Origin: an uncultured Gemmatimonadota bacterium
GTDB lineage: Bacteria; JAAXHH01
Assembly: GCA_951812955.1 (NCBI GenBank)
Contig: OX638340.1
Location: forward strand, 3,552,001-3,616,000
Direction of reading: 5' to 3'
Length of the DNA stretch: 64,000 nucleotides
The notes below the pieces were generated by a model. That model had not been told where the DNA came from, did not search any database, and saw nothing but the letters and a program-made list of their open reading frames with translations. The translations under genes and the position numbers were made by a program. This document shows positions 1 through 15,878 of the stretch, one piece after another. Every line of letters begins with the position of its first letter. The first letter of the stretch is position 1.

Positions 1-901
1 GGGTATCGCCGACCTTCCCCGTGCTGCCGTACATCACCGAACCCGTGATTCCGTGCCGCATGTCGTCGGCCCCGGTGTTGAGTACGTAGTCGGCGTTCAG
101 CGCCAGCGGCCGTCCGTTCACGGTCTGGGTATACTGGCCGCTGAAGTTGATCATCCTGAATTCGGACAGGTATCCGGTGCGGTCCGCGTTGGGTCGGTTC
201 GAATTCGCCGCAACGATCAGAGCGGGAGACTTCAGGTTCTGCGCGGCATAGAGGGAATCCGCGCCCCCCACGGTATAGTAGGCGACGGCCAGCGTCTGGG
301 ACCTGCCGGGCTGGTTAAATCGGGCCATGGCCTGTCCGCCCAGGAAATAGGTACGGTCGAGGTCCTTCACCGGAGAGGCCACCTGGTTGATCATGAACTG
401 GCCGAAATTCAGGCCGAAGGTCGCGGAGCCGTCAGCGCTCTTCGTGGTGATCTGCTGGGCGAGTCCCTCCGGCGAGAGATCGCTGTCCAGGACGACCTGG
501 GTAGGCCGGAAGAAGGGCAGGGGAAACTTGCCCGCGGTCAGGGTGAGCGAGGGATTGGGCCTGATGCGCGCGTACATCCAGGAAATATAGGGGTACTCGC
601 GTTCAAACAGGTCGCCGTAACTCATCCAGTCGGCAACGGTGATCGCCTTGGGATTGCCCGTCATGACCTTGCCGGTCACGTCGATGCGGTCCGTCACGCG
701 CAGCGTAGCATTCAGGAAGGCCCCGTACATGAAGCGGTTGACCGCCCGGCTGCCGTCCTGATAGTCGCCCTGCAGCCGCGATCTGATCATCCCGTTCCAG
801 GTGAAACGGTCGTCTTCCTGGGCGGCGACGGGAGCGACGGGAACGACGTTCGTCAACGCGGTGAGAAAAAGGACGCACAACAGGAAGTATCGGATCGGCA
901 T
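1..901 (-). CDS. Partial secreted or outer-membrane protein with N-terminal signal peptide. Start ATG at 901; the gene runs off the left edge of the window.
   Basis: The reverse-complement translation from 901 reads MPIRYFLLCVLFLTALTNVVPVAPVAAQEDDRFTWNG... with no stop to position 1. Alternating hydrophobic, Gly and aromatic residues suggest a beta-barrel or porin. The track ORF 53..1030 (+) lies antisense to this gene. Confidence 0.5.
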   Translation of the reverse strand, partial: MPIRYFLLCVLFLTALTNVVPVAPVAAQEDDRFTWNGMIRSRLQGDYQDGSRAVNRFMYGAFLNATLRVTDRIDVTGKVMTGNPKAITVADWMSYGDLFEREYPYISWMYARIRPNPSLTLTAGKFPLPFFRPTQVVLDSDLSPEGLAQQITTKSADGSATFGLNFGQFMINQVASPVKDLDRTYFLGGQAMARFNQPGRSQTLAVAYYTVGGADSLYAAQNLKSPALIVAANSNRPNADRTGYLSEFRMINFSGQYTQTVNGRPLALNADYVLNTGADDMRHGITGSVMYGSTGKVGDT

Positions 902-1406
902 GGGTTCATCCCCTCCAGTGTACCCGTTCTTTTTTGCTACGTACAGTGGGCCGGAATCGCCGAAACACGCTGGAAATCGATTCATTTAACAGAGGTGAGT
1001 CTTGAACAAGGGATAGTATGGACGCGGTGATTTCGTGTCAAGAAATATCGAAAGGTCTTCTGCCCACGTCGCATGGAATTGAAAAGGCGTCATCGACCCG
1101 GTCCGGCCATCCGATGACCGGTGGGCGACAGACGGCGTCCGAGGGACGACAGGCAGCGTCCGGGGAACTGCGTCAGGTATAATGTTAGAATGAAGCAGGC
1201 GGTTCGGGTGTATCCAGATTGTATACACATATCCGGACGGCACGGCAACTCGTGTTCAGTTACTTTAGGGTTGTCAGGACACCTTCGGCCGGGTATATTC
1301 GACTTCGTTATCGAATCGGACCATCCAGGCGGAATCGGGTGGGTCGATTTCGACCGCGACCGGCGATTATGCGCGGTCGTGTCCATTCATTCCAGGGAGA
1401 ACATTC

Positions 1407-2669
1407 ATGTTGAACAGTATCATGGAGAAAGTCGACTCCGGCCTTTCCCGCCGCCGTTTTCTCACGGGCGCGCTGGCGGCCGGCGCCGCGCTCACTCTGG
1501 CCGATCGCCTTGCCCTAGCCCAGACCATGGCCTCGAGCGGCCTTACCGCCAAGGACATCCACGGGATCGGCGTCGAGCCGGGTCTCGTCCGCATGGCGCT
1601 GAACGAAAACCCGATCGGGCCGTCCCCGATGGCGCTTAAAGCCATCGCCGAGAACATGTTCAAGATCAACCGGTATTCCTTCGGCGGCGGGGACATAACT
1701 GGCGCGCTGGCCGAATTCGACGGGATCGAACTCCCGCCCCCTCGTGAATTGCCGGCCGGTATGCGTGGCATGGGCGGTGGCGGGGGATTCCGTTTCAGGC
1801 GGCAGACGCCCTTCTTCATCACGGCGGGTTCCGGCGCGCTCCTTACCCAGATTGCCCTGGCCTACCTTAGCAAGGGTGGAACCGAGGTGATCGAGGCGGA
1901 CATGGGGTATGGCGATGTGTCGGGTGAGGCCGAAGACTACCAGGAAGCGGGCATCGACGTGAACATCATCCGCGTACCCGTGAAGAACTACGAGCACGAC
2001 CTGGACGCCATGCTCGCGGCGATCACGCCGAAGACCTCCGTGGTGGTCATCACCAACCCGAACAACCCGACCGGGACGCTGCTGTCCTTCGAAGAAACCG
2101 AGAAGTTCGTGAACTCCGTGCCTGAGAACGTGCTCGTGGTCATCGACGAGGCCTACATTCACTTCGTCAAGGACCCGGCGTACCAGACCGCGGCGTCGCT
2201 TGCCACCACACACGACAACGTGATCGTCACGCGGACCTTTTCCAAGGTTTTCGGCATGCCGGGCATGCGCCTCGGGTACGGGATCTGTAGCCAGGCCATC
2301 CAGGAGAAGCTCGGGTTCTACAGCACGGGGCGCGCCAACGCCCTGGCCTACGCCGCGGGCGAGGCTTCGCTCAAGGACAGGAGCCACTACGACCGTTCCC
2401 GGGCGGTGGTCCTGCATTTCAGGGAAAGACTTGAAGAGGAGTTTACGAAGATGGGGCTGGAATTCATCCCGTCGGAAAGCAACTTCATGATGGTCAACCT
2501 GGGCAAGCCCTCCATGAATATCATGCGGGAGATGTTCCGCAAGGGCGTCATGGTGACGAACCGGCGCAGGCAGCAGATGCCCACGTGGATTCGCGTATCC
2601 TCCGGCGACGAGCGGGAAACGGAAGTCTTCCTCAACGTGCTGAAAGAAGTCCTGGGTAAAACCAGCTAG
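1407..2669 (+). CDS. Class I/II PLP aminotransferase of the HisC (histidinol-phosphate aminotransferase) family, carrying an N-terminal twin-arginine (Tat) signal peptide.
   Basis: The N-terminus SRRRFLTGALAAGAALTLA is a Tat motif. Family motifs LNENPIGPSP, NPNNPTGT, VIDEAY and TFSKVFGMPGMRLGY are present, the last with the lysine in FSK. Confidence 0.8.
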   Translation: MLNSIMEKVDSGLSRRRFLTGALAAGAALTLADRLALAQTMASSGLTAKDIHGIGVEPGLVRMALNENPIGPSPMALKAIAENMFKINRYSFGGGDITGALAEFDGIELPPPRELPAGMRGMGGGGGFRFRRQTPFFITAGSGALLTQIALAYLSKGGTEVIEADMGYGDVSGEAEDYQEAGIDVNIIRVPVKNYEHDLDAMLAAITPKTSVVVITNPNNPTGTLLSFEETEKFVNSVPENVLVVIDEAYIHFVKDPAYQTAASLATTHDNVIVTRTFSKVFGMPGMRLGYGICSQAIQEKLGFYSTGRANALAYAAGEASLKDRSHYDRSRAVVLHFRERLEEEFTKMGLEFIPSESNFMMVNLGKPSMNIMREMFRKGVMVTNRRRQQMPTWIRVSSGDERETEVFLNVLKEVLGKTS

Positions 2670-2685
2670 CAGCACGGGGCCGCCA

Positions 2686-4020
2686 ATGTCGCAAATCCGC
2701 CTGCCCCTGGTCGTTACGTGGGGCCTGGTCGTCCTGTGGTTCGTGCTGGACGTCACGGCCCTTATGGCGGGCGGCCCATTTAATGTCAACTGGACCATAC
2801 CGGTCGCCGCGGCCTGGCTCTCGGTCGTATGTCTCCGCGCGGGCAGAGGTTACGGCGGGTTCCTGTCCGCGGTTCTGCTCTATACGGCAGGCGTCCGCCT
2901 GCTGATCATACTGCTGGCGATCCTGGGCAAGACGACCGGGCTCGATGGCGCGTACTTCACCTGGGGACGCAGCGCGCTATTCGGCCTGGTCATTCCCCAT
3001 GTCGTGCTGTGGCCGGTCGTCACCTTTATCGCGGGTACGCTGATCTGGCCGGTGACGGCCCTGGTTATGCGCCGGAGACAGGTATCCTATCGAGGCGCGG
3101 CCATGGGCGTTTTGATCATCCTTCTGCTCGTCTTCATCGGCCTGCCCTACCTGATTTCGACCCTGTACACCGGCAGCGTGGGACCTCGCCGCAAGGCGCA
3201 GGACACCCCCGCGGACCACGGGATGGTCTACGAGGACGTCACGCTGACGACTTCCGACGGCCTGAACCTGGCCGCATGGTACGTCCCGAACGAGACCGGC
3301 CGCGGCACGGTCATTTACTGTCACGGCCATCTCAACCACAGGGGTCAGATGCTCGACCAGGCAGCCTTTATTCATGAAAACGGCTTCAATGGGCTCCTGT
3401 TCGATTTCCGGCGGCATGGGGACAGCGAAGGCAATCTGACGACATTCGGCTATTTCGAGTGGCGCGATGCACAGGCGGCCCTGAGATACGCGGTCGACGT
3501 GCGGGGAGAGCAAGGTCCGGTCATTTTGTGGGGTGTTTCCATGGGCGCGGCCACCGCGTTGCTCACGGCAGCTGAAGAGCCCGAGATCGACGCCGTCATC
3601 GCCGAAAGCAGTTTCTACGCGGCCTCCGAAACGCTGCGCGGCGACCTGAACCGGATGTTCGGCCTGCCCACGGTGCCCTTCGGGTTTCTGACGGGTACCA
3701 TAACGGAACTTCGGGTGGGCATCAAGCTTGATGCCCTGGACATCGGCCGCGCGGTGTCCGGCCTGAAGGAAGCTTCCGTGCTTCTGGTGGGCGGCACGGC
3801 GGATCGCCGCATGCCGGTATCGAACAACGAACGGCTATACGACCAGATACCCGGAACGCGCAAGGAGATCTACGTGGTGGAGGGCGCGACCCACGGCGAC
3901 ATTTGGGAAATGGACCGGGAAGCGTACGCGGAGACGGTCCGGCAGTTCCTGGAAAGATATGGTTTGCTCGATGGCCCTGAACCGCCGGCCGGCGAGGAAA
4001 CCGCGGAAGAAACGCTGTAG
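2686..4020 (+). CDS. Membrane-anchored alpha/beta hydrolase. About 170 aa of N-terminal transmembrane segments are followed by an esterase or peptidase-like domain.
   Basis: There are several hydrophobic helices at the N-terminus. A GxSxG nucleophile elbow is present as GVSMGAA, together with [19 protein letters not shown] and a C-terminal GATHGD (histidine of the catalytic triad). Confidence 0.75.
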
Positions 4021-4054
4021 ATTACGTTGCAGGTTGGCTGCTGATAGCGCGGAA

Positions 4055-4120
4055 GATAACGCCGCAAGTAGCGCTGCGGATAACATTGTAGATAACGCTG
4101 CAAGTAGCACTGCAGATAAC
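4055..4120. repeat. Intergenic imperfect tandem repeat, GATAAC-N18-GATAAC.
   Basis: The sequence reads gataacgccgcaagtagcgctgcg / gataacattgta / gataacgctgcaagtagcactgca / gataac. Confidence 0.7.
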
Positions 4121-4144
4121 TCAGAAGAAATAAGGGGAACAGGC

Positions 4145-4813
4145 GTGAGCGAACCCGTGTTTCAACCCCTGTCGTCCTACCAGGAATATCCACCCGACGA
4201 GATGGAGCGGCGGGCCGAAGCATTCTACCAGGCGCTTCGCCGCCGGCGCACGGTCCGTGAATTCTCCGACCGGCCCGTGCCGAAATCGATCATCGATCAC
4301 TGCATACTGGCGGCCGGCACGGCGCCCAGCGGCGCGAACATGCAGCCGTGGCATTTTGCCGCGGTGTCCGACCCTGAAATCAAGGCGACGATCCGCGTCG
4401 CCGCAGAGCGGGAGGAACAACAGTTCTACCAGGAGAAGGCGCCGCAGGAGTGGCTCGACGCACTGGCCCCACTGGGTACCGACCAAAACAAACCATTTCT
4501 GGAAACGGCGCCTTGGCTGATCGCGATCTTCGTACAGCGCCACGGCATGCTGCCCGACGGGCGGAGCGTAAAGCACTATTACGCCCTGGAATCGGTGGGC
4601 ATCGCCACGGGGATGCTGATCGCGGCGGTGCACCACGCCGGCCTGGCGTCGCTCACCCACACCCCGAGTCCCATGAACTTCCTGAACCGGCTGCTGGGCA
4701 GGCCGGCCAACGAGCGGCCCTTCCTGCTCCTGGTCGTCGGCTACCCGGCGGAAGGCGCGGAAGTGCCGGTAATCACGAAAAAGCCCCTTGACGACATTGC
4801 CACGTTCGCTTGA
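4145..4813 (+). CDS. Nitroreductase-family flavoprotein. The likely start is GTG at 4145; the track ORF instead starts at ATG 3959, inside the upstream gene.
   Basis: Motifs [21 protein letters not shown] and [14 protein letters not shown] are present. The sequence AAGGGGA lies 6 nt upstream of the GTG. The 3959-4144 stretch overlaps the hydrolase C-terminus and an intergenic repeat. Confidence 0.65.
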
Positions 4814-4886
4814 AGCACGGTGCAGGTGCCTGAAGCGCGGCGCGGCGGCCTGAAGTGCGGCGAAGCAAGGGAAATAAGGAGGTATC

Positions 4887-5762
4887 ATGCGCGGGTCGAT
4901 CGTACCGGTGGTTACACCCTTCAGGAACGGGTCGCTGGACCTGGACGGACTGGCCGGACTGGTCGATTGGCAGATCCGGAGCGGTTCCCACGGCGTTTCG
5001 GTTCAGGGGACGACGGGCGAGCCGGGTTCGCTATCCCTCGAAGAGCGCAAGGAGGTGATCCGCGCCGCGTCCGCGGCGGTGGACGGCAGGGTGCCCTTCG
5101 TTCCGGGCAGCGCATCCGCCAACCACGAGGAGTCCATCGAACTCTCTCGCTTCGCGCAGGCCCATGGCGCCGACGCGCTGCTGTTCATCGCGCCGTACTA
5201 CAGCCGGCCCGGCCAGGAAGGGATATATCGTCATTTCGACGCGTTGGCCAAATGCGTGGACCTTCCCGTAATCCTGTACAATATCCCGGGCCGCACGGCC
5301 GTCAACATCGAGATCGATACCGTGGCGCGGCTGAAGGAGGCCAACGACAATCTCATCGGCGTCAAGGAGTCGAACAAGGATTTCGAGCACATCAACCGCC
5401 TGCTGCACCGCATGGGCAGGGACTTCCTGGTGTACTCGGGGATCGAACTGCTTTGCTATCCCATTCTCGCAATCGGCGGGGCGGGATTCGTGAGCGCAAC
5501 GGGCAATCTGATGCCAGTGGAAGTCGCGCGACTGTACGACCTGGTCCAGGAAGGGAAATGGCTGGAGGCGCGCGAACTCCACTACCACATGATGACGCTC
5601 AACGACGCCGTGTTCATGGAGATCAACCCGGTTCCTGTCAAGACGGCCCTGGGCATGATGGGCAAGATCAGCCCGGAGGTCAGGCTGCCCCTTGCGCCGT
5701 TGTCGGACCGCAACCGCGAAAAACTGCGCGGGATCCTGGCGGACTACGGACTGATCCGGTAA
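4887..5762 (+). CDS. DapA-family (dihydrodipicolinate synthase / N-acetylneuraminate lyase superfamily) class I aldolase or lyase.
   Basis: Motifs VVTPF, GTTGE, the Schiff-base lysine in LIGVKESN, and YNIPGRT are present. A strong RBS, GGAGGT, precedes the ATG. Confidence 0.85.
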   Translation: MRGSIVPVVTPFRNGSLDLDGLAGLVDWQIRSGSHGVSVQGTTGEPGSLSLEERKEVIRAASAAVDGRVPFVPGSASANHEESIELSRFAQAHGADALLFIAPYYSRPGQEGIYRHFDALAKCVDLPVILYNIPGRTAVNIEIDTVARLKEANDNLIGVKESNKDFEHINRLLHRMGRDFLVYSGIELLCYPILAIGGAGFVSATGNLMPVEVARLYDLVQEGKWLEARELHYHMMTLNDAVFMEINPVPVKTALGMMGKISPEVRLPLAPLSDRNREKLRGILADYGLIR

Positions 5763-5812
5763 CCGGCCGCGGCGCGGAGCCATTGGCTGTCGGCCCGTTT
5801 TCCGGTACGCAC

Positions 5813-6838
5813 ATGTCGAAAACAACCTACCGTCTGCATTACAACGAGAACCCCCTCGGTCCCTCTCCGGTGGTGATGGACCGGATCCGGGATCACCTGG
5901 CGGGACTCAGCCTCTACCCGCACCGGGACGACGAAGCGTTGCGAGACTGCCTGGCGGCGTTCTATGGCAGGGGAGTGACGCCTGCGCACCTGTTCTCGAC
6001 ATATAGCGGCTCCGAAGCCCTGGATCTCATCGCGCGGGTTTACCTGGAACCGGGCGACGAGGTCATCGTCTGCGGACCGACCTTCCACGTTTACGCACGG
6101 ACGGCCGAGTGGCAGGGCGCGAAGATCGTCGACGTACCGCTGGACAACCAGGATTTCAGCGTCCGGGTCGACGCGGTCATGCGGGCGGTTACGCCCCGGA
6201 CGCGCCTGGTCTACGTGGGCAATCCTAACAATCCGACGGGGTCGATCGTCACCCGGGACGACATGGACCTGCTCCATATGGGGCTGCCCGACCAGGTGAC
6301 CCTGATATCCGACGAAGTATACCACCACTTCGTGACGCGTCCGGACTACCCGGATTCGCTGGCAAGTGTCGCGGCGGGACGGAACTTGATCGTCCTCCAT
6401 TCTTTCTCGAAGGTCTACGGTTTGGCCGGTCTTCGCGTGGGCGTGGCGATCTCCCGTCCCGACATCATCGACCGGCTGGCGAGATACCGCAGGACCTTCC
6501 ACCTGGGTACGCTGGAGATGGAGGCGGCCATCGCGGCCGTTGGCGACCCGGACCACGTGGCGCGATCCGTGGCGATGGCGGAGCGGGGCAAGAAAAGATG
6601 CTATGCCGCCTTCGATCGTTTGAGGATTACATACTGGCCCAGTGAAGGCAACTTTATCCTGTTCCGAACGCCCATGTTCGCGGACGATCTCGCCGCGCGC
6701 ATGGCCGACCGGGGCATTCTCGTGGGTTCGGGCAGCCGTTTCGGCCTGACGCATGCCATCCGGGTCAGCATCGGGCTCCCGGAAGCCAACCAGGCTTTCA
6801 TTTCGGCCCTTGAGCATATTCTGGCCGACGAAAGTTAG
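5813..6838 (+). CDS. HisC-like class I/II aminotransferase. It is cytoplasmic, with no signal peptide.
   Basis: MSKTTYRLHYNENPLGPSP, GNPNNPTG, DEVY and SFSKVYGLAGLRVG are present. The long track ORF 4820..6838 is an upstream extension of this gene in the same frame. Confidence 0.85.
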   Translation: MSKTTYRLHYNENPLGPSPVVMDRIRDHLAGLSLYPHRDDEALRDCLAAFYGRGVTPAHLFSTYSGSEALDLIARVYLEPGDEVIVCGPTFHVYARTAEWQGAKIVDVPLDNQDFSVRVDAVMRAVTPRTRLVYVGNPNNPTGSIVTRDDMDLLHMGLPDQVTLISDEVYHHFVTRPDYPDSLASVAAGRNLIVLHSFSKVYGLAGLRVGVAISRPDIIDRLARYRRTFHLGTLEMEAAIAAVGDPDHVARSVAMAERGKKRCYAAFDRLRITYWPSEGNFILFRTPMFADDLAARMADRGILVGSGSRFGLTHAIRVSIGLPEANQAFISALEHILADES

Positions 6839-6860
6839 CATGCGCGTACCGTCGGGCGAC

Positions 6861-7003
6861 GCCATTCGGTCGCCCTTGCGCCGCCGGTCACCCAGGCGCC
6901 GCCTTTCGGTCGATCTGGCACCGCGTTCTGGTCGATCTGGCGCCGCGTTCCGGTCGTCCTTGCGCTGCCTTTCGGTCGATCTGGCGCCGCGTTCCGGTCG
7001 TCG
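6861..7003. repeat. Intergenic direct-repeat array with an approximately 32-bp unit (cctttcggtcgatctggcRccgcgttcYggtcg).
   Basis: Two full units lie at 6903-6934 and 6968-6999, with partial copies (gccattcggtcgcccttgcgccgcc and gcgttccggtcgtccttgcgctgcc). Confidence 0.7.
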
Positions 7004-7077
7004 ACAATCAGCGGTATGCCTGCCGCCGACGTCAGGTATATCCGAGCGAAAACTGACAATAGCACGAAGGGAAACGC

Positions 7078-8373
7078 ATGTCACAGACCGCATTGATCGA
7101 ACGGGCGGAAAAAGTCTTCGTCGGCGGGTCGAACGGGGAATTCCGTCTCCCGCCGGAAGCCAACCTTGTGGTGACCCACGGCGATGGCGCGATGATCTAT
7201 GACGCCTCCGGGCGTGAATACGTCGACTTCCTCCTGGGTTCCGGCCCCATGATCCTCGGTCACGGCCATCCGGAAGTCGTGACGGCGGTGACGCGCCAGG
7301 TAGCCCGGGGCACCACCTTCATGGCCCTCAACGAGCCGGCCATCCGGCTGGCCGAACGGGTGGTGGACGCCTCGCCATGTGGGGAGAAGGTACGCCTGGT
7401 AATCACCGGATCCGAATCGATTCAGTTCGCCCTGCGGGCCGCCCGGGCCTTCACGGGCCGCGACCGCTGCCTGCGTTTCGAAGGGGGTTGGCACGGCGTG
7501 AGCGATTCGGCACTGCACGGGGCGAGGACGCTGGATCCCGGCGACTATCCTGACACCCTGCCGGACGGCGGCGGCATTCCGCGGAACTGGTCGGCGGACA
7601 TGCTCGCCGCGCCCTTCAACGACGTGGGCCGGGCCACCGAAATCGTGGAACGCCACCACGGCGAACTCGCCGCAATCGTCATCGAGCCCCTCCAGCGATG
7701 TATCCTGCCCCGTCCGGGTTTCTTCGAGGCCATGCGGGCATTGTGCGACCGGCACGGCATCGTCCTCATCTTCGACGAGATTGTCACGGGTTTCCGCATG
7801 GCCTGGGGCGGGGCCCAGGAACGTTACGGCGTGACCGCGGACCTGGCGGCATACGGCAAGACGATCAGCGGCGGATATCCCCTGGCCGCCATGTGCGGCC
7901 GGTCGGACGTGATGGACGTCATGAACGGCTGGCGTCCGGCCGACGATCCGAAACGGGTCATCGCATCGGGCACTTTCAACGGCTATCCCGTGGGCGCCGT
8001 CGCCGGACTGGCCACCCTCGACGTGTTGGAACGGCCCGGGACCTACAAGCGGCTTTTCGCCATGGGCGACCGCGTTACCCGGGAGATCACGGCCATGGGC
8101 GAGCGGCTTTCGGTCCCCCTCCTCGTCGGCGGCGAAGGGCCCGTGCTCCAGGTATTGTTCACCAGCGAAAAGGAAATCGTCGACTACGGATCCATGTTTC
8201 GCGCCGACAAGCAGAAGGCCTATGTCTTCGGCGTCGAGATGATCAAGCGTGGGCTCTTCGTCAGTCCCTACGAGAAGATCTATCTGTCCCTGGTCCATAC
8301 GGACGGTCACGTCGACCGTCTCCTGGAGACGGCGGAGGAAGTGTTGCGGGACGTGATCGCGAAAATGGATTGA
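7078..8373 (+). CDS. Class III PLP aminotransferase, similar to glutamate-1-semialdehyde 2,1-aminomutase.
   Basis: GSGPMILGHGHPEV, FDEIVTGFR and the lysine in AAYGKTISGGYP are typical of the HemL, GabT or ArgD fold. Confidence 0.85.
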   Translation: MSQTALIERAEKVFVGGSNGEFRLPPEANLVVTHGDGAMIYDASGREYVDFLLGSGPMILGHGHPEVVTAVTRQVARGTTFMALNEPAIRLAERVVDASPCGEKVRLVITGSESIQFALRAARAFTGRDRCLRFEGGWHGVSDSALHGARTLDPGDYPDTLPDGGGIPRNWSADMLAAPFNDVGRATEIVERHHGELAAIVIEPLQRCILPRPGFFEAMRALCDRHGIVLIFDEIVTGFRMAWGGAQERYGVTADLAAYGKTISGGYPLAAMCGRSDVMDVMNGWRPADDPKRVIASGTFNGYPVGAVAGLATLDVLERPGTYKRLFAMGDRVTREITAMGERLSVPLLVGGEGPVLQVLFTSEKEIVDYGSMFRADKQKAYVFGVEMIKRGLFVSPYEKIYLSLVHTDGHVDRLLETAEEVLRDVIAKMD

Positions 8374-8444
8374 ACGGGTGCGGAGACGGCCGCCCGATAC
8401 CTGGTATGGCGGCCCGAACAAACGATTAGAGAGGGAGCAAACCC

Positions 8445-9167
8445 ATGAAAAACGTCCTCCTCCTGGGCGCCTCGGGCAACATCGCGCCGTACATCATCCC
8501 AGGCCTGGAGCAACACTACAATCTGCGCCTGGCCGATATCCGTCCCCATCCGGGCGGCAAGCCCACGAAGCAGGTAGACATGGGCGACTACGGGCAGGTG
8601 CTGGAAGCCGCCCGCGACATGGACGCCATCATGAACTGGACCGTGGTCCGGCAGGATCCTGTGGCCAGTTTCGCCGTGTCCGTCCGGGGCGCATGGCACG
8701 TGATGAAGGCGGCGGCCGAACTCGGTATTACGAAGATCCTGCACACGGGCCCTGAGATCATCATTCCCGGCTATCTCCACGACCACGACATCGGCGACGT
8801 GCCCCAGGCGCCGGGCACGGGCTACTATATGCTGACCAAGCACCTGGCCATGGAGATTTGCAGAATCTACGCCCGCCAGTACAGGATACACACCGTGTGC
8901 TACCAGTTCAACGGACTGGGACCCATGCCCGAAGAGCCGGTAAAGAACGCCGACCACCCGCCCTTCACCATCGTCTACGACGACCTGGTGGAGGCCTGCC
9001 GGCTGGCCCTGGAAATCGATGAAGTGCCGGACTATTTCCAGGCTTTCAACATGGGCAGCTATTTGCAGCAGGGCAAATACACCATCGACAAGGCCCGGCG
9101 CATCCTCGGCTACGAGCCACGGACCAACCCCCAGCGATTCTACAGGCGGCCGGTGGCGGACGCATGA
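8445..9167 (+). CDS. Short NAD(P)-binding Rossmann protein of the epimerase/dehydratase or atypical SDR type.
   Basis: An N-terminal LLLGASGNIA glycine motif and a YxxxK motif (YMLTKHL) are present. The stop overlaps the next start as ATGA at 9164. Confidence 0.6.
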   Translation: MKNVLLLGASGNIAPYIIPGLEQHYNLRLADIRPHPGGKPTKQVDMGDYGQVLEAARDMDAIMNWTVVRQDPVASFAVSVRGAWHVMKAAAELGITKILHTGPEIIIPGYLHDHDIGDVPQAPGTGYYMLTKHLAMEICRIYARQYRIHTVCYQFNGLGPMPEEPVKNADHPPFTIVYDDLVEACRLALEIDEVPDYFQAFNMGSYLQQGKYTIDKARRILGYEPRTNPQRFYRRPVADA

Positions 9168-10288
9168 AGATCACGCGGTTCGAGGTCATTCCCCTGAAGC
9201 AGCGCGGCCTGCTGCTCAAGGTGCATACCGATTCGGAACTCGTGGGTTACGGATCGCCCATGAATTACGAACACGGCCGCACGGTCGCCCGGGCCATCCA
9301 TGACATGGAAGACTACCTCGTGGGCCGTGATCCCCGGCAGATCGAGGATCACTGGCAGACGCTGTTCCGGTCGAGCTACAGCCGCCAGATGCCCATCATG
9401 CTGTCCGCGCTGAGCGGAATTGAACACGCATGTCTCGATATTCTTGGAAAATCGCTGGACGAGCCGGTGTGGCGCCTGCTGGGCGGCTCATGCCGGGAAC
9501 GCGTTCGGGTATACGCGTCCGTCGGCGGTCCGTCGCCGGAAGCATACGCGAAGCACGCCAGGGAACGGGTGGCGGAAGGGTATACCGCACTGAAGTGCAC
9601 GCCCTTTCCCGACCCAGTCCGATACGTGGATACCCCTGCGGCCATGGAGCGGATCGTCGCCCGCGTCGCCGCGATCCGCGAAGCCGTGGGACCGGAGATC
9701 GACGTCGCCGTGGACTTCCACCGGGCCGTCAGTCCGGCCATGGCGAAACGCCTCCTGAGGGAACTGGAACCCCTGAAACCTTTTTTCGTCGAGGAACCCG
9801 CCCACCCGGAAAACGTCGACGCCCTGCTCGAGATCACCCGGTCCACCACCATCCCCATCGCCACCGGCGAGCGGAACACGACCCGATGGGGCTTCCGGGA
9901 ACTGGTGGAGAAGAAGGCCGCGGCGATCCTGCAGCCGGACGTGCGCCACTGCGGGGGGATCCTGGAGATGAAGAAGATCGCGTCCCTTGCCGAGGTCCAT
10001 TACGCGGCCTTGGCACCCCACTCCGCGGCCGATCCGGTCGGCGTGGCCGCGTCCCTGCAGGCCGTGGCCGGTACGCCAAATTTCCTTATCCAGGAGTATG
10101 GCGGCGGCGCGGGAGAAACGCTGTTTACCAAACCCCTGGTCTTCAAGGATGGTTACGTGGAATTGCCGACCGGCCCCGGCCTCGGCATCGAGATATCTGA
10201 AACGGGCCTCGCGGCCAACACGGCAACCGAATGGCGCCTGCGAAACATGCGCCGCGACCCGGACGACCATTCCTATTCCGATATCTGA
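9164..10288 (+). CDS. Enolase-superfamily (mandelate racemase / muconate-lactonizing enzyme) dehydratase, similar to D-galactonate dehydratase.
   Basis: The N-terminus MKITRFEVIPLKQRGLLLKVHTDSELVGYGSP resembles the DgoD start. The rest is consistent with the metal-binding acidic residues of a TIM-barrel MR/MLE C-terminal domain. Confidence 0.8.
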   Translation: MKITRFEVIPLKQRGLLLKVHTDSELVGYGSPMNYEHGRTVARAIHDMEDYLVGRDPRQIEDHWQTLFRSSYSRQMPIMLSALSGIEHACLDILGKSLDEPVWRLLGGSCRERVRVYASVGGPSPEAYAKHARERVAEGYTALKCTPFPDPVRYVDTPAAMERIVARVAAIREAVGPEIDVAVDFHRAVSPAMAKRLLRELEPLKPFFVEEPAHPENVDALLEITRSTTIPIATGERNTTRWGFRELVEKKAAAILQPDVRHCGGILEMKKIASLAEVHYAALAPHSAADPVGVAASLQAVAGTPNFLIQEYGGGAGETLFTKPLVFKDGYVELPTGPGLGIEISETGLAANTATEWRLRNMRRDPDDHSYSDI

Positions 10289-10305
10289 AAAGGGAAGGGC
10301 GCATC

Positions 10306-11202
10306 ATGACTGAACAACACACGCGCTCGACATCTCCACTCACCCGGGAACCCGTACGCCTGGCGAGCGTCCTGTGCCTGGGTATTTTCGCGTTTGTGTG
10401 CGTCGCGGCACCCGGCTGCGCTTCGGAGCCGGATCCATCGGCGTCAACCCCGGATCCCGAAGACCGCAGCAGGGAAGTTCTCGCCACGGCGGCGGGACAT
10501 GCTTCCGCCGCGACCGCCGCCGAAACGATCTGGACGCCGCCACGGCCCCGGTCCGTCCATGAGCGTCGCGATGAGCGGGAACGCATGGTTGGGGAGATCC
10601 TGGACAAGTCTCCCATGGTGACGGACGCAGCCGTGCTCCGGGCCATGACGGACGCGCCTCGCCACGTGTTCGTCCACGAACAGACGCGGCGTCTCGCCTA
10701 CGACGATACGCCCCTGCCCATCGGGCTTGGACAGACCATTTCCCAACCCTATATCGTGGCCTACATGACCGAACTGCTCGAATTGGACTCCGATTCGAGG
10801 GTCCTGGAGATTGGCACCGGATCGGGTTACCAGGCCGCCGTGCTCGCCCACCTGACCCCCCACGTATACACCATGGAAATCATCGAACCCCTGTTGGAAC
10901 GGGCCCGCGGCCTGCTTTCTGAGGAAGGGTATGACTCGGTCCGGACCCGCCATGGCGACGGCTATTTCGGGTGGCCGGAGGCGGGCCCCTTCGACGCCAT
11001 CATCGTCACCTGCGCCGCCGGCCATCTCCCGCCCCTCCTGTGGTCCCAGCTCAGGCCCGGCGGCCGCATCGTTATTCCCATCGGCGAGATGACGGGGGTG
11101 CAGCGGCTGGTCGTCGTACAGAAGACCGCGGACGGAGCGCGGACCTCCCGCACCGTCTTGCCCGTACGATTCGTGCCCATGACAGGCCGGGTCGAACAGT
11201 GA
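10306..11202 (+). CDS. pcm: Protein-L-isoaspartate O-methyltransferase carrying a lipoprotein-type signal and a roughly 70-aa linker ahead of the catalytic domain.
   Basis: The PIMT core motifs ISQPYIVAYM, VLEIGTGSGYQAAVLA and DAIIVTCAA are present. The N-terminus LGIFAFVCVAAPGCAS resembles a lipobox. An RBS, GGGAAGGG, precedes ATG 10306. Confidence 0.8.
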   Translation: MTEQHTRSTSPLTREPVRLASVLCLGIFAFVCVAAPGCASEPDPSASTPDPEDRSREVLATAAGHASAATAAETIWTPPRPRSVHERRDERERMVGEILDKSPMVTDAAVLRAMTDAPRHVFVHEQTRRLAYDDTPLPIGLGQTISQPYIVAYMTELLELDSDSRVLEIGTGSGYQAAVLAHLTPHVYTMEIIEPLLERARGLLSEEGYDSVRTRHGDGYFGWPEAGPFDAIIVTCAAGHLPPLLWSQLRPGGRIVIPIGEMTGVQRLVVVQKTADGARTSRTVLPVRFVPMTGRVEQ

Positions 11203-13682
11203 CCTCGCGCACCGGAATCGCGAATGCGCCCAAGCGTCTGCCGGCGAGATACCTCGTGCGGGCCGCCGGCCTGGTGGCCTGCGGCGTCATCGCCTTCGAA
11301 ATCGGGCTGATTCGGGTGCTGCAGTACGCGAGCTGGTACCATTTCGCCTTCCTCGTCATTACCATAGCCCTCCTCGGCTTCGGCATGAGCGGCGCCATCC
11401 TGTCGCTGTGGCGCGGCTACCTCATCCGTCGCCTGCAGACCGCCCTTCCAGTCCTCGCCCTGCTTACGGCGGTCTCCATTCCCCTCGTGCTCCATGCAGC
11501 TCAGCTCCTGCCCGTGTCCGGCCGTTTCCTGCCCGGTCTGGTCGTCGGGCAACTGGCCTGGTGGGTGGTATACTGGGCCCTGCTAACCGTCCCCTTTGCC
11601 CTGGGCGCCACCGCCATCGGACTGGCACTCATGTCCGCCGGAGAACGGCTGCCTGCGGTATACGCGTCGAACCTCATCGGCAGCGCATCCGGCGCGGTCG
11701 GCGTGACCGTCGTCATGTACTTCGTAGAACCCGCCTGGCTGGGTTACGCGACCGGGGTCGTGGTACTGGCCGCGGCATGGCGCACCGATCGCCGGACGCT
11801 GAGCGTCGGACTGGTTGCCGCGGGTGTGCTTGCCGGTGCGCTTGCGGTGCTGCTCAACCCACCTTCCATCCGTGTCGACGACGACAAATACCTCGCCTAC
11901 GTCAACCGGCTCGAAGCGGGCGGGCAGGCCGTGCAACTAGCCCGCGCCTTCGGTCCGTCCGGGGTCGTGGAGGTGTTCGGCAGCGATACCTTTCACGATA
12001 TGGCCTTCATGACCGACGATCGGATGCCGCCTTCCATGGCGTCGATCGTCGTAGACGGACACCGCGCCGGTTCCCTGTTGCGGATCGACGGTACGGACCA
12101 GGCGGAGGCCCTGGACGGCACGCTCATGGCCCTGCCCTATGGCCTGGCGCCCACCAGACCCAGGGTACTGCTGCTGGACGAGGTCGGCGGCGGCAACATC
12201 TGGCTGGCCCGTCGCAACGGTGCGGCCGCCGTGGACGTCGTGCAATCGAACCGGGTGCTTACAGAACTTTTCTCCGGTCCCCTGGCGGCCGAAGGAGGGG
12301 CCGTATTCAACCTGCCGGATGTCGTGCTTCATTCGGTGGAACCGCGGGCTTTCCTCGAAGGAACGGACGAAGCCTTCGATCTCATTCAACTGTCGGGCAT
12401 GGAATCCTGGTCGGCGGCCGCGGGCGGCCTGGAAGGGCTGAACCAGGACCATCTCATGACGGTGGAGGGCATGAATGCCGCCCTGCGGCGGCTGTCCCCG
12501 GACGGCATACTCCACGTCTCCCGCGGCATTCAGCTGCCGCCCCGGGACAACGCGAAGATCGCTGCAACGGTCATCACGGCGCTGGAGCAGTCGGGAATCG
12601 CCCGCCCGGCCCGATCGGGCGCGCATATGGCCATGGTCCGGGATTTTCTGGGCGTCATCACCATGGTGCGGCCGCGGCCCTGGCGAGCAGACGAGATCCG
12701 CCGCCTGCGGGACCTGTGCGCGGCGAAAAACCTGACCCCGGTGTACTTCGAAGGGATTTCGGCCGAAGAACTGAACCGCCCCGACGAACTGCCCGGTCCG
12801 CCGGGCGAAGAAGGCGATTACCTGTACCACGTGGTGCGTTCGTTGTTGTCGCTGGGCCCAGGCGCTTCGACGGACTTCCTGGACGAATGGCCCTTCCACG
12901 TCCGACCAGCCACCGATGACCGCCCCTTTTTCGGTAATTTCGGAAAGATCGGCACCCTGCCCGATTTCAGGCGAGTTTACGGGGCTGGCTGGCTGTTGCG
13001 TTCCGAACTGGCCTTTCTCTTCGTCCTGTCCACCGCGTTCATCGTGTCTCTCGCGGGCATCGTCCTGATTCTCCTGCCCTTCGCATTTCGTTCGGATATC
13101 CGGCGCGCGCCGGACCGTTCGACCGCCGCGTTGTACTTCCTGGCCATCGGGCTGGCCTACCTGGTGCTGGAGATCGCCTTTCTCTCCGGCATCCAGCGTC
13201 TGCTGGGCGATCCGGTCATCGGCGGCGCGGCCACGGTGGGGGGCTTTCTTTTCTGTTCGGGCCTGGGCAGCCTGGTGGCCAACCGCATTGCAGCACTTCC
13301 AGGGGTTTCCCTGACGAGACTGGCGATGGTGCCCGCGGTCATGGCCATCCCGGTGTTCACGGGCCTGATCCTCCTCAACCTGTACGGCGGCGCCTGGTCC
13401 CTGGGAATCCGCCTCGCCGCGGCAGTGGCCCTCATCGCGCCCCTGGCCTTCGCCATGGGTCTGCCCTTCCCCCTGGGACTGCAACAGTTCCAGGCACGGT
13501 CCGCCGCCCTCGTACCGTGGGCCTGGGGCGTCAACGGATGTGCTTCCGTTCTCGCTTCTCCGATCGCCATGATCATCGCCATGCAGTGGGGATTCATCCT
13601 GACGGTGACGGTGGCGGCGGTTTGCTATGTTGTTGCGGCCTGTGCGGCGGCAAGGGGAGGGTCGTCACCTTCTTCGGCATAG
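11199..13682 (+). CDS. Fused MFS-like / spermidine-synthase-like integral membrane protein. A polyamine aminopropyltransferase fold is flanked by multi-TM domains.
   Basis: The GTG start at 11199 overlaps the pcm stop as GTGA. About 7 N-terminal TM helices precede a central soluble domain with RVLLLDEVGGGNIWLARRNG, the SpeE-like glycine-rich SAM or dcSAM site. A C-terminal block of at least 6 TM helices follows. Confidence 0.6.
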   Translation: MTSRTGIANAPKRLPARYLVRAAGLVACGVIAFEIGLIRVLQYASWYHFAFLVITIALLGFGMSGAILSLWRGYLIRRLQTALPVLALLTAVSIPLVLHAAQLLPVSGRFLPGLVVGQLAWWVVYWALLTVPFALGATAIGLALMSAGERLPAVYASNLIGSASGAVGVTVVMYFVEPAWLGYATGVVVLAAAWRTDRRTLSVGLVAAGVLAGALAVLLNPPSIRVDDDKYLAYVNRLEAGGQAVQLARAFGPSGVVEVFGSDTFHDMAFMTDDRMPPSMASIVVDGHRAGSLLRIDGTDQAEALDGTLMALPYGLAPTRPRVLLLDEVGGGNIWLARRNGAAAVDVVQSNRVLTELFSGPLAAEGGAVFNLPDVVLHSVEPRAFLEGTDEAFDLIQLSGMESWSAAAGGLEGLNQDHLMTVEGMNAALRRLSPDGILHVSRGIQLPPRDNAKIAATVITALEQSGIARPARSGAHMAMVRDFLGVITMVRPRPWRADEIRRLRDLCAAKNLTPVYFEGISAEELNRPDELPGPPGEEGDYLYHVVRSLLSLGPGASTDFLDEWPFHVRPATDDRPFFGNFGKIGTLPDFRRVYGAGWLLRSELAFLFVLSTAFIVSLAGIVLILLPFAFRSDIRRAPDRSTAALYFLAIGLAYLVLEIAFLSGIQRLLGDPVIGGAATVGGFLFCSGLGSLVANRIAALPGVSLTRLAMVPAVMAIPVFTGLILLNLYGGAWSLGIRLAAAVALIAPLAFAMGLPFPLGLQQFQARSAALVPWAWGVNGCASVLASPIAMIIAMQWGFILTVTVAAVCYVVAACAAARGGSSPSSA

Positions 13683-13753
13683 CACACGGACCGTGCGGCA
13701 CAGAGCGCGGCGGCTCCCTGTGGGAGCCCGCCTGAACCGGATCGACGACGCGA

Positions 13754-15784
13754 TCAGCGCACACGGCCGATCACGGCGGTCTGATCGTCGAATTGTTCCG
13801 CGCCCAGGGAGAAGTCGCGTACGGAGGCGAGGATCAGTTCCAGGATATTCTCGCTGGGCCTGTTGCGGTTTTGCGACAGGACCTGGCGGAGTCGCGCCTC
13901 TCCGAAATCTTCATCCTTCGTGTTGAGCGCATCCGTAATGCCGTCGGTATAGACCGCGAAGAGATCCCCCGGATCGACACGGACGGCAGATTCTTCGAAT
14001 TCCGCTTCCGGAAACAGCCCGATCGGGTAACCGCCGCTTTCGAGCAACGCGATATCGTCGCTGTCATTGCGAAGGAGCAGGGGCGGATTATGTCCGGCGC
14101 AGCAGTAATTCAACCGGGATGTTTCCATGTGGAAAGTGCAGATGAAAAGCGTGGCGAATCGTTCTGGCGCCGTGCTGTGGCACAAATAGACGTTGAGACG
14201 GGACATCAGCCTGGACAGCCGGTCCGGGCTTCCTTCCAGCGCCGGGTCCAGTGCCTGGGACCGCAGCGACGCCTGCAGGCCGGCCATCGTGAGCGCCGCC
14301 GAGATGCCCTTTCCCGATATATCGCCGACTACGATATCCAGCGTTCGATTTCGGTGTTGAATGAAATCATAGTAGTCGCCGCTGACTGTACGGGCGGGTA
14401 TCCAGGCACCGGCCAGTTCGAGAGGACCCTGTCGCGGCGGTTCGTTGGGTATGAAACGGGCCTGCACGTCCCGGGCCATGGAAAGTTCCGTTTCGATACG
14501 CTCTTTTTCTCTCTCTTCATTCATCAGCGTCTCAATGCTCTGCGCCATGGTGTTGAAAGAGTGGCTGAGTTCACCAAGTTGATCCCGCGTTCTTTCTTCC
14601 ACGCGAAAGTCCGTCCTACCGGAGCGAATGGCCTCCGTACCCTCGTACAGTCCGTGTACGGCCGTGGTAATCCGACGTGAAACGAGCAGCCCGATCATAA
14701 AGGATACCAGTTCGAAGCAAACGAGTATCGTGCATAGGGTAAAAAAAACGTACAGCAGAGGAAAACCGGAGAGCAGCATGTCAGCACTGACGGTGGCTTC
14801 GAATATGTGTATCGGATCCAGATCCAGGCCCAGTATCGCCACGTTGCTCGCACCGTGATTCCAGGACCTGGCTGCAAAGGAAAAAGCCCAGGGCACGTGA
14901 ATTGCACCTAAAAGCGGCAATTGGCGCCACTCGACTTCCGAAGCAGGAGGTTCATAGAAGGAGAACTCCTCGTTACGGGGTTCCGCCCGGTACGAGACCT
15001 GCGCGCCGAGTTCCTCCCATATTTTCGTCCGGTAGGCCTCCCCCAGCGGCATGGAGGCGAGGACATACAGGTCCCTTCCGCGGAATTCGATCGCGTCGCC
15101 GGCGCGAAAGGACAGCGTGGAACGGACGCCGGACAGGCTGTCGAATACCACATCGGCGAAATGGCCTTCCCGGAATAACCAGTCCGGAAGCGGTTCCAGC
15201 GTATCGAAAGACGGAGTCACATTCACTGGTCTGCCATCTTCAAATACGCTGATCGACAGGCCGGAAAGGTCTGGATTGTCCTGTACGATTTCGTCCACGA
15301 TCCTGGCGAACGGCAGATTGTCGTCCGTGGCCGTCCGCACAAGGGCCAGTTGTATTTCGAGTGACAGATGATCGAGCTGGTTGGTCGTCTCTTCGATATG
15401 ACGGGAGACCAGATTGGTTCCCAGGGTTCCGATCCAGAGCCATCCGACGAGCAGACTGACCGAAGAAGCGATGCAAAGGGGCGCGAGGCCTGCGAAAATA
15501 AACGAAACGAGCAGGCGGTTCCTGACTTTCCACAGCAGACGATTCCGCAGCCACGAGAGCGTCTTCCAGGCGTAGTAGAAGATGCTCGCGGCCAGCAGGA
15601 CGGCCGCCGGCACGACGAGCCAGCCGACTACGCCCTGCCAGGTGCCCAGGAGCAGGAAGGACACCGCCGCCATGATCAGGAAGGCATAGGTACAGCGCTT
15701 GATCCAGGTATCCGGGGTCAGCCATTTCAACGTCCGGCGGATGATGCGACTGGATCTCGCGCTACTGAATTTTGCAACGTTCAT
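13754..15784 (-). CDS. SpoIIE/PP2C-family serine phosphatase (RsbU-like) with two N-terminal transmembrane regions and a HAMP linker.
   Basis: A HAMP-like segment RRITTAVHGLYEGTEAIRSG is followed by a PP2C domain with DVQARF, VSGDYYDF and VGDISGKGISAAL. Confidence 0.8.
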   Translation of the reverse strand: MNVAKFSSARSSRIIRRTLKWLTPDTWIKRCTYAFLIMAAVSFLLLGTWQGVVGWLVVPAAVLLAASIFYYAWKTLSWLRNRLLWKVRNRLLVSFIFAGLAPLCIASSVSLLVGWLWIGTLGTNLVSRHIEETTNQLDHLSLEIQLALVRTATDDNLPFARIVDEIVQDNPDLSGLSISVFEDGRPVNVTPSFDTLEPLPDWLFREGHFADVVFDSLSGVRSTLSFRAGDAIEFRGRDLYVLASMPLGEAYRTKIWEELGAQVSYRAEPRNEEFSFYEPPASEVEWRQLPLLGAIHVPWAFSFAARSWNHGASNVAILGLDLDPIHIFEATVSADMLLSGFPLLYVFFTLCTILVCFELVSFMIGLLVSRRITTAVHGLYEGTEAIRSGRTDFRVEERTRDQLGELSHSFNTMAQSIETLMNEEREKERIETELSMARDVQARFIPNEPPRQGPLELAGAWIPARTVSGDYYDFIQHRNRTLDIVVGDISGKGISAALTMAGLQASLRSQALDPALEGSPDRLSRLMSRLNVYLCHSTAPERFATLFICTFHMETSRLNYCCAGHNPPLLLRNDSDDIALLESGGYPIGLFPEAEFEESAVRVDPGDLFAVYTDGITDALNTKDEDFGEARLRQVLSQNRNRPSENILELILASVRDFSLGAEQFDDQTAVIGRVR

Positions 15785-15878
15785 GAGCAGGAATTCCGAA
15801 GAGATGGGCGGACGGGTGCCCGCCCTGGCTACTGTCCAGTGACGCCGTCCCTTTCGTGGCGAATACGACGGCTACGCG

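Follow-up and report, generated by a model that had tools for sequence, protein, structure and literature searches.

In a 64,000-nucleotide stretch of DNA from an uncultured Gemmatimonadota bacterium (GenBank assembly GCA_951812955.1, contig OX638340.1, positions 3,552,001 to 3,616,000 of the forward strand), hereafter the window, a block of ten consecutive plus-strand genes occupies positions 1407-13682. We refer to these genes as g1 to g10 (Table 1). An earlier note on this sequence had read the block as an operon-like cluster serving one aminated keto-acid or amino-sugar-acid product, with a polyamine-like or aminopropylated molecule handled at the membrane. Our analysis indicates instead that the block is likely to be a lineage-specific Gemmatimonadota directon, in which independently evolving modules have been juxtaposed as a mosaic, and not one pathway. 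These modules most probably have different functions. Deep conservation is confined to the g9-g10 pair, which is translationally coupled, is conserved across phyla and encodes an exported protein-L-isoaspartate O-methyltransferase (PIMT) together with a membrane protein of the major facilitator superfamily (MFS) fold that carries an inserted domain with the fold of SpeE.

The family assignments that the earlier note had given to the ten genes were all borne out by Pfam together with NCBIfam or structure prediction, including the exported PIMT and, through its predicted structure, the fused MFS/SpeE architecture of g10. Several identities could be sharpened: the nitroreductase-fold protein (g3) is an ortholog of iodotyrosine deiodinase (IYD), the DapA-like protein (g4) is an HpaI-type aldolase, and g10 is an MFS fold with a SpeE-fold domain inserted into it. 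Every enzyme belongs to a known superfamily. Like the note, we found no known pathway that fits the gene set; the cluster is not novel as a pathway, and what is new is the exported PIMT with its MFS/SpeE-fold partner, a variant on PIMT repair and on membrane SpeE-like proteins.

Conservation of the gene order

To follow the block across genomes, g3 was compared with one genome per species, which yielded 80 IYD loci with 10-kb flanks, and all ten proteins were then sought in these loci by tblastn. The order g1-g10 was confined to seven related loci (L001, L002 and L005-L009), whose IYDs are at least 88% identical to g3; the source names of the homologs are those of Gemmatimonadetes or Gemmatimonadota metagenome-assembled genomes. 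Within the 80-locus scan the full order was present in five genomes (IYD at least 89% identical), L001 and L002 being additional to the scan. In the other 75 loci, where the IYD is 59-75% identical, tblastn found none of g1, g2 and g4-g10 within 10 kb, save for a few aminotransferase or mandelate racemase/muconate lactonizing enzyme (MR/MLE) matches at 23-30% identity. These 75 loci span many phyla and include other Gemmatimonadota. The genes that flank the block, namely a porin gene upstream and SpoIIE phosphatase, creatininase and luciferase-like genes downstream, are syntenic in the same clade; because the flanks are as syntenic as the block itself, the order within the clade is best read as background synteny. 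Neighbourhood conservation of the exact set, which the earlier note had proposed as a check, was therefore seen solely in one narrow clade, and no co-localization of the full set was found beyond close relatives and this background.

Elsewhere the set splits up. The low-GC contig L092 (MDTE01008031.1, 516 kb) keeps the porin, then g1 and g3-g7, then the creatininase, and is without g2 and g8-g10. In L003, g6, g7, an additional short-chain dehydrogenase/reductase (SDR) gene, g8, g9 and g10 stand behind unrelated genes, and g1-g5 are absent. Three tandem paralogs of g1 followed by a g2 homolog, with nothing more of the set, make up the match in L090, and L089 has g1 alone. Because these partial sets differ from one locus to the next, and because IYD stands by itself in the wider scan, we divide the block into the modules g1+g2, g3, g4-g7, g8 and g9+g10.

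As to L092 itself, its GC content at third codon positions (GC3) is about 0.33, compared with about 0.8 in the window, and the synteny of the luciferase-like gene is also retained there. This contig may represent a compositionally shifted or reduced sister lineage.

The fate of g8 also differs among close relatives. The protein scores 382 bits on the equivalog model NF010624 (cut-off 311) and matches PDB 3rr1 at 5e-76. The gene is missing or truncated in L001, L002, L006, L008 and L009, with five different pairs of deletion breakpoints (9480-10231, 9207-10506, 9344-10412, 9168-10529 and 9170-10415 in window coordinates); L001 keeps a 120-aa N-terminal stub. The distinct breakpoint pairs point to repeated, independent loss of g8, which is dispensable and decaying in this clade.

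These observations bear directly on the proposal that the ten genes constitute one operon and one pathway, in which an aminated keto acid or amino-sugar acid is made and finally aminopropylated at the membrane by a SpeE-type enzyme. An aldolase, three aminotransferases, a dehydratase and an SDR can be chained on paper, the genes are co-directional with short spacers, two overlaps and gaps free of terminator-like sites, and the full order recurs in seven related loci. This recurrence, however, is restricted to a clade with equally syntenic flanks, in which g8 was lost five times with differing breakpoints. Partial sets occur in L092 (g1, g3-g7) and L003 (g6-g10), g9-g10 stand alone elsewhere, and none of the 75 other genomes shows a link between IYD and the set. 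Moreover, the SpeE-fold domain lacks the catalytic aspartate in 38 of 38 homologs and the acidic residues that contact decarboxylated S-adenosylmethionine (dcAdoMet) in most of them, and it is predicted to be periplasmic. We therefore consider a single pathway very improbable. The earlier note had itself named absence of co-localization in related genomes as evidence that would overturn its proposal, and outside the narrow clade this is largely what we observed; the modules have separate histories, which argues against one shared aminated product.

Several points nevertheless weigh against the mosaic interpretation. The short spacers, and gaps without terminator-like sites, would permit co-transcription of all ten genes. 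The g5-g6 spacer of only 13-30 nt in relatives, together with the retention of g1 and g3-g7 in L092, would be compatible with a lineage-specific sub-operon. The comparisons are samples rather than a census (8 distant g10 loci, 80 IYD loci and 80 g4 loci), and the view of this genome is the 64-kb window, so that partner genes located elsewhere, such as hpa genes, a second pcm or a second dapA, would fall outside it. Finally, the roles of the modules rest on sequence comparison and predicted structure, and topology and signal peptides on the positive-inside rule and inspection of the sequences.

An exported PIMT paired with an MFS/SpeE-fold protein

In every distant locus sampled, 8 of 8 lineages in all, the g10 homolog is immediately preceded by a PCMT-domain gene, and as a rule the two genes abut or overlap. 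By their source names, these lineages cover at least four phyla in addition to Gemmatimonadota. Such loci include L003, L004, L085, L086, L087, L171 and L172, across which the identity to g10 falls from 57% to 32%, and the source names of these and of other g10-family members include Krumholzibacteria, Planctomycetota, Proteobacteria and Spirochaetales. Apart from the pair, the distant neighbourhoods have unrelated contents. In L092, g9 and g10 were lost together.

The catalytic domain of g9 is that of a typical PIMT. The protein exceeds the cut-offs of NF001453 (226.7 bits, cut-off 188) and TIGR00080 (189, cut-off 159), aligns at about 1e-49 over residues 102-293 with the Vibrio and E. coli Pcm structures (PDB 4l7v and 3lbf), and has intact motifs for substrate (TISQPY) and for S-adenosylmethionine (AdoMet; EIGTGSGY). 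Classical Pcm is cytoplasmic. In contrast, the catalytic domain of g9 is preceded by a signal and linker of about 100 aa with a hydrophobic N-terminus. A lipobox-like sequence, ...[AG]C[AS]xEP, is shared by the window and the six in-clade g9 loci checked. A signal-like N-terminus is found in each of the 8 distant partners. With this lipoprotein-type extension and the adjacent, coupled gene for an MFS/SpeE membrane protein, g9 does not resemble a stand-alone cytoplasmic PIMT. Its setting differs as well, in that classical pcm lies in surE-pcm-nlpD-rpoS loci (locus genes as named in PMC2736372).

The partner, g10, matches no Pfam or NCBIfam model, including PF01564, the MFS families and the SpeE or fused MFS/spermidine synthase models. 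Its family is nonetheless large: a word-index search gave 199 matches, and an exhaustive profile search gave 5,860 representatives at 50% identity (E <= 1e-30). Among the homologs, weak matches were obtained to Pfam for 9 of 38 and to PRK03612 for 19 of 38, and none belongs to a curated family. A confident AlphaFold model of g10 (predicted local distance difference test score 88.8) revealed both folds. The central domain returned only aminopropyltransferases as top Foldseek matches and aligned with E. coli SpeE at 95.4% probability in hhalign, and the membrane part has the MFS fold with its two six-helix halves. The architecture is seven transmembrane helices (TM), about 380 aa of SpeE fold and seven more TM, the insert lying between TM7 and TM8 and these two central helices being extra to the MFS halves. 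Short loops on the side of the termini carry 13.6 lysine and arginine residues compared with 1.1 on the opposite side, a bias seen in 38 of 38 homologs. Because the positive charge sits with the termini, topology prediction puts the SpeE-fold domain on the periplasmic side.

In SpeE, a D(S/C)xDP loop contains the catalytic aspartate, and contacts to dcAdoMet are made by acidic residues in the 'VEID' motif on strand beta-2. At the position of this aspartate the g10 family has an aspartate in 0 of 38 members, the commonest residues being alanine (17), valine (9), serine (5) and proline (5). In the 'VEID' motif, E is replaced by Q in 31 of 38 and D by N in 26 of 38. Two elements are kept, the glycine-rich motif I and the aspartate of FD(L)I. 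Since the catalytic aspartate is absent and the acidic residues are mostly replaced, g10 is unlikely to be a canonical aminopropyltransferase; a nucleoside-binding role is plausible for its SpeE-fold domain, in which the motifs of the nucleoside pocket appear to be preserved. The aminopropylated or polyamine-like membrane product suggested by the earlier note is thus not supported, as the domain in question lacks the catalytic residue throughout and is coupled to a PIMT, not to the aminotransferases. From the membrane aminopropyltransferases of the PRK03612 type, and from proteins that carry the NCBI label 'fused MFS/spermidine synthase', g10 differs in matching no family model, in having the SpeE fold inserted centrally in a 14-TM MFS protein on the predicted periplasmic side, in its altered catalytic and 'VEID' positions, and in having a PIMT as an obligate neighbour.

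Together, g9 and g10 would most likely form a self-contained extracytoplasmic unit for AdoMet-dependent methylation or isoaspartyl repair. The MFS/SpeE protein would serve this unit by delivering or retaining its cofactor, or else by presenting the substrate. A more specific model, which we put forward only tentatively, is that the 14-TM MFS part might export AdoMet (perhaps against S-adenosylhomocysteine) and that the catalytically disabled periplasmic SpeE-fold domain might bind this nucleoside cofactor and hand it to a lipoprotein PIMT active in the periplasm. If true, such a supply would explain how an AdoMet-dependent enzyme acts in a compartment thought to be without AdoMet. The literature searched contained nothing relevant on a periplasmic PIMT or on a fused MFS/spermidine synthase of this kind.

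A probable halotyrosine dehalogenase beside aminotransferases and an aldolase

The g3 protein matches the IYD of Haliscomenobacter hydrossis (PDB 5ko7) at 9.2e-76 and human IYD (4ttb) at 1.7e-53 over its full length, and it has the length of the bacterial family, 222 aa. Glu91, Tyr95 and Lys116 of g3 have identical counterparts in the aligned 5ko7 chain; they correspond to the Glu/Tyr/Lys lid triad, to which the halotyrosine zwitterion binds (PMC8668982). A function of the BluB or F420 type was rejected, the BluB model giving 64 bits against a cut-off of 150, whereas the IYD match is strong. Like other bacterial IYDs, g3 is without a membrane anchor. The position of its gene beside aminotransferases and an aldolase is specific to the clade and is not a trait of the family. 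We take g3 to be a stand-alone IYD that would reductively dehalogenate free halotyrosines. Record names of relatives in this clade, such as Plut_88884 and SB0664, suggest sponge or coral metagenome-assembled genomes; on IYD in sponge symbionts, nothing relevant was found in the literature searched.

Downstream of g3, the genes g4-g7 are tightly packed in relatives. The g4 protein scores 380.4 bits on TIGR02313, the HpaI-NOT-DapA exception model for 2,4-dihydroxyhept-2-ene-1,7-dioate aldolase, just below the cut-off of 396.7, and 287 bits on the dapA model TIGR00674 (cut-off 206). Relatives of g4 at 57-77% identity give the same scores. Those located within hpa clusters reach 372, 386 and 405 bits on TIGR02313, which means that the cut-off of this model splits a single clade. 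These relatives adjoin genes for FAA_hydrolase, Aldedh (HpaE-like), HpaB (704 bits), HpaC and HpaD (417 bits). Because relatives with the same scores adjoin hpa genes, g4 is best placed in the aldolase subfamily of the 4-hydroxyphenylacetate clusters, although in its own case the hpa context has been lost. A tblastn search of the 64-kb window for FAA hydrolase, Aldedh, HpaB, HpaC and HpaD found none of these genes; the only matches, at 58.1-58.9 kb, are ABC ATPases.

A housekeeping role, with g4 as the DapA of lysine and diaminopimelate (DAP) synthesis and g5 as the HisC of histidine synthesis that happen to stand in the run, was also considered. The g4 protein clears the dapA cut-off, its top solved relatives are all dihydrodipicolinate synthases (DHDPS), the motifs GTTGE, PYYSRP, YNIPGRT and GVKE of the DapA catalytic Lys, Tyr and Arg are visible in its translation, and no protein of the block is more strongly conserved (95-100% in the clade). 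The HpaI-type relatives pass the same dapA score and motif test, however, so that the test does not discriminate, and g4 scores higher on the HpaI-NOT-DapA model. Its nearest out-of-clade relatives lie in hpa clusters and not beside dapB, for which reason we down-weighted a housekeeping DapA. As for g5, its score comes near the hisC cut-off but stays below it (254.1 bits, cut-off 276.55), and there are no adjacent his or dap genes. A housekeeping role for g4 and g5 is accordingly quite unlikely.

The remaining enzymes of this module belong to broad families. The PF00155 match of g5 (5e-52) is accompanied by HisC and a putative phenylalanine aminotransferase as best PDB matches. The g6 protein matches PF00202 at 1.5e-53 and falls well below the hemL cut-off (323.8 bits, cut-off 527.3), its best PDB matches being glutamate-1-semialdehyde aminomutases at 254 bits; the g6 and g7 genes stay together in L003 and L092. 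The g7 protein matches Epimerase at 5.8e-8 and uronate dehydrogenases weakly, at 1e-5. Chemistry of the guanitoxin GntC and GntE type was tried for g5 and g6 and set aside, as the scores lie far under the cut-offs (148 against 415 and 306 against 525) and reflect similarity at the level of the general family. At low confidence, g4-g7 might transaminate a substrate, cleave it by an aldol reaction, and then transaminate or oxidize the aldehyde; the substrate would be an amino or keto acid that either bears a gamma-hydroxy group or derives from an aromatic compound.

A related possibility is that g1 and g3-g7 together form a lineage-specific operon, with g2, g8 and g9-g10 as unrelated passengers. 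In host-associated Gemmatimonadota this operon would serve to salvage or break down halotyrosine, tyrosine or some other amino acid of aromatic or gamma-hydroxy type. In such a scheme IYD would dehalogenate, the HisC-type enzymes would deaminate, and the aldolase, the omega-aminotransferase and the SDR would process keto acids and aldehydes. The L092 contig, much lower in GC and with a shorter region, keeps exactly g1 and g3-g7 contiguous, but it also retains the flanking porin and creatininase, so that this order may be inherited synteny. The g5-g6 spacer shrinks to 13-30 nt in five relatives, and the nearest outside relatives of g4 lie in clusters that degrade 4-hydroxyphenylacetate or homoprotocatechuate, a tyrosine-derived aromatic; the window, however, contains no hpa genes. 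Among the best-matching solved structures for g1 and g5 is a putative phenylalanine aminotransferase. The scores of g1, g5 and g6 lie under all equivalog cut-offs. What bacterial IYD does biologically is acknowledged to be an open question (PMC8668982), which counts in favour of a role of this kind; against it, no conserved neighbours of IYD were seen in any of the 75 more distant genomes. On this balance, an aromatic amino acid operon within the block seems unlikely, and we retain the mosaic of modules as the preferred reading.

An exported aminotransferase with a membrane hydrolase

The first module combines g1, which matches PF00155 at 1.2e-43 and the TAT_signal model at 0.002 (Pfam), with g2, which matches Hydrolase_4 at 5.6e-19 and has its hydrophobic segments within residues 3-165. 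An RRx[FLIVM] motif is present in 110 of 115 full-length g1 homologs. The PtaA/PRK09105 family comprises twin-arginine translocation (Tat)-exported periplasmic pyridoxal phosphate (PLP) transaminases that act in pyoverdine tailoring in Pseudomonas (reviews PMC6206403, PMC9305348). With this family g1 shares the twin-arginine signal, the HisC-type PLP fold and the SFSK lysine motif. It differs in scoring far below the respective cut-offs (PRK09105, 229 bits against 444; PtaA, 186 against 500), in having no pyoverdine genes nearby, in its pairing with a membrane hydrolase and in its expansion as paralogs. Paralogs of g1 are found in the same genomes, and large contigs with g1 or g10 orthologs also have paralogs at 42-48% identity; these genomes carry an expanded family of Tat-exported aminotransferases. 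The g2 homolog that follows the g1 paralogs in L090 is 51% identical, and g2 is absent from L092. Probably, g1 and g2 would process amino compounds or peptides at the periplasmic face.

Layout, spacers and transcription signals

The ten open reading frames (ORFs) have coding-type GC3 values of 0.74-0.84 in a window of about 63% GC and form the longest same-strand run in the 64-kb window; that ten consecutive plus-strand genes lie here, as first described, is confirmed by the ORF calls and by the GC content of the codon positions. With family-consistent starts, the spacers from g1 to g10 are 16, 124, 73, 50, 239, 71, -4, 17 and -4 nt, so that all ten genes show the co-directionality and short spacers or overlaps of an operon layout. 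Of the three start/stop overlaps reported previously, those at 9164 (ATGA) and 11199 (GTGA) are real. The third is not, and arises solely from longest-ORF starts (3959 for g3 or 10231 for g9). For these genes we favoured starts at 4145 and 10306, on the basis of the IYD family length and of the gene calls on L001, a near-identical metagenome contig with the same genes as the window.

The sequence at 1271..1299 is the sole strong plus-strand promoter match near the block. A consensus scan placed no terminator-like site in the intergenic gaps, the overall number being at chance level (10 found, 8.9 expected), and likewise no internal promoter in the gaps, in a scan that also performed at chance level and with a sigma-70 consensus that may not suit this phylum. 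No Rfam riboswitch or other RNA element was detected in positions 1-16000 at E <= 0.1. Short spacers, two overlaps suggestive of translational coupling, and gaps without terminator-like sites support the operon-like layout, and the block in this genome probably forms one or a few transcription units.

The two widest gaps are filled by repeats. At the 3' end of g2 and in the g2-g3 spacer, short tandem or direct repeats occur that are different in each genome (L002, L005-L009), and this spacer looks like a hypervariable repeat hotspot and not a conserved operator. The g5-g6 gap measures 239 nt in the window, 198 nt in L001 and 13-30 nt in L002, L006, L007, L009 and L092; because it is so short in these five relatives, its repeat appears to be a recent, strain-variable expansion. 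A conserved operator in either spacer was rejected, the repeats differing in every relative. The 239-nt and 124-nt gaps are strain-specific repeat expansions, not conserved regulatory spacers.

Downstream, a gene for a HAMP-SpoIIE (PP2C) phosphatase (13754-15784, minus strand) and a creatininase-family gene (15879-16685, minus strand) converge on the block. The creatininase gene is syntenic even in L003 and L092, and the phosphatase gene is absent from L006, L009 and L092. In L002, a 1160-aa helicase/nuclease-like gene (12780-16262; AAA_11/AAA_12, RNase_H_2 and a faint nSTAND3) lies between g10 and the phosphatase, an insertion that may be of a mobile or defence type.

Table 1. Genes, repeats and promoter-like site of the block at 1407-13682 (window coordinates).
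Feature	Position	Strand	Description
g1	1407..2669	+	Tat-exported HisC-family PLP aminotransferase (PRK09105/PtaA-like), 420 aa, SRRRFL Tat motif
g2	2686..4020	+	Membrane-anchored S33-type alpha/beta hydrolase (Hydrolase_4), about 5 TM, 444 aa
g3	4145..4813	+	Iodotyrosine deiodinase (halotyrosine dehalogenase) ortholog, nitroreductase fold, 222 aa, GTG start
g4	4887..5762	+	DapA-family (DHDPS) class I aldolase, HpaI-type subfamily (TIGR02313-like), 291 aa
g5	5813..6838	+	HisC-family aminotransferase, cytoplasmic, 341 aa
g6	7078..8373	+	Class III (HemL-like) aminotransferase, 431 aa
g7	8445..9167	+	Short extended-SDR NAD-binding dehydrogenase, GASGNIA and YxxxK motifs, 240 aa
g8	9164..10288	+	D-galactonate-dehydratase-family MR/MLE enzyme, 374 aa
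g9	10306..11202	+	Exported lipoprotein-like PIMT, 298 aa
g10	11199..13682	+	14-TM MFS fold with SpeE-fold insert, 827 aa, GTG start overlapping the g9 stop (GTGA)
Sigma-70-like promoter	1271..1299	+	TTGTCA-17-TATATT, about 110 nt upstream of g1; 10 of 12 positions match; weak, such sites being near chance overall
Direct repeats	4046..4120		Two copies of about 30 bp, GATAACGCYGCAAGTAGCRCTGCRGATAAC, in the g2-g3 spacer
Tandem repeat	6855..7002		22/44-bp period, 6.8 copies, filling the g5-g6 spacer

Discussion

The same-strand packing of these genes within one clade is not evidence of shared function, and treating the block as a biosynthetic gene cluster, in annotation or in genome mining, should be avoided. 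Within it, the presence of IYD among aminotransferases and an HpaI-type aldolase in this clade offers a starting point for testing why a halotyrosine-specific dehalogenase is retained in bacteria. The part of the block most worth pursuing is the g9-g10 pair. If this pair is extracytoplasmic, it implies periplasmic AdoMet chemistry, possibly isoaspartyl repair, which would lie outside current textbook models.

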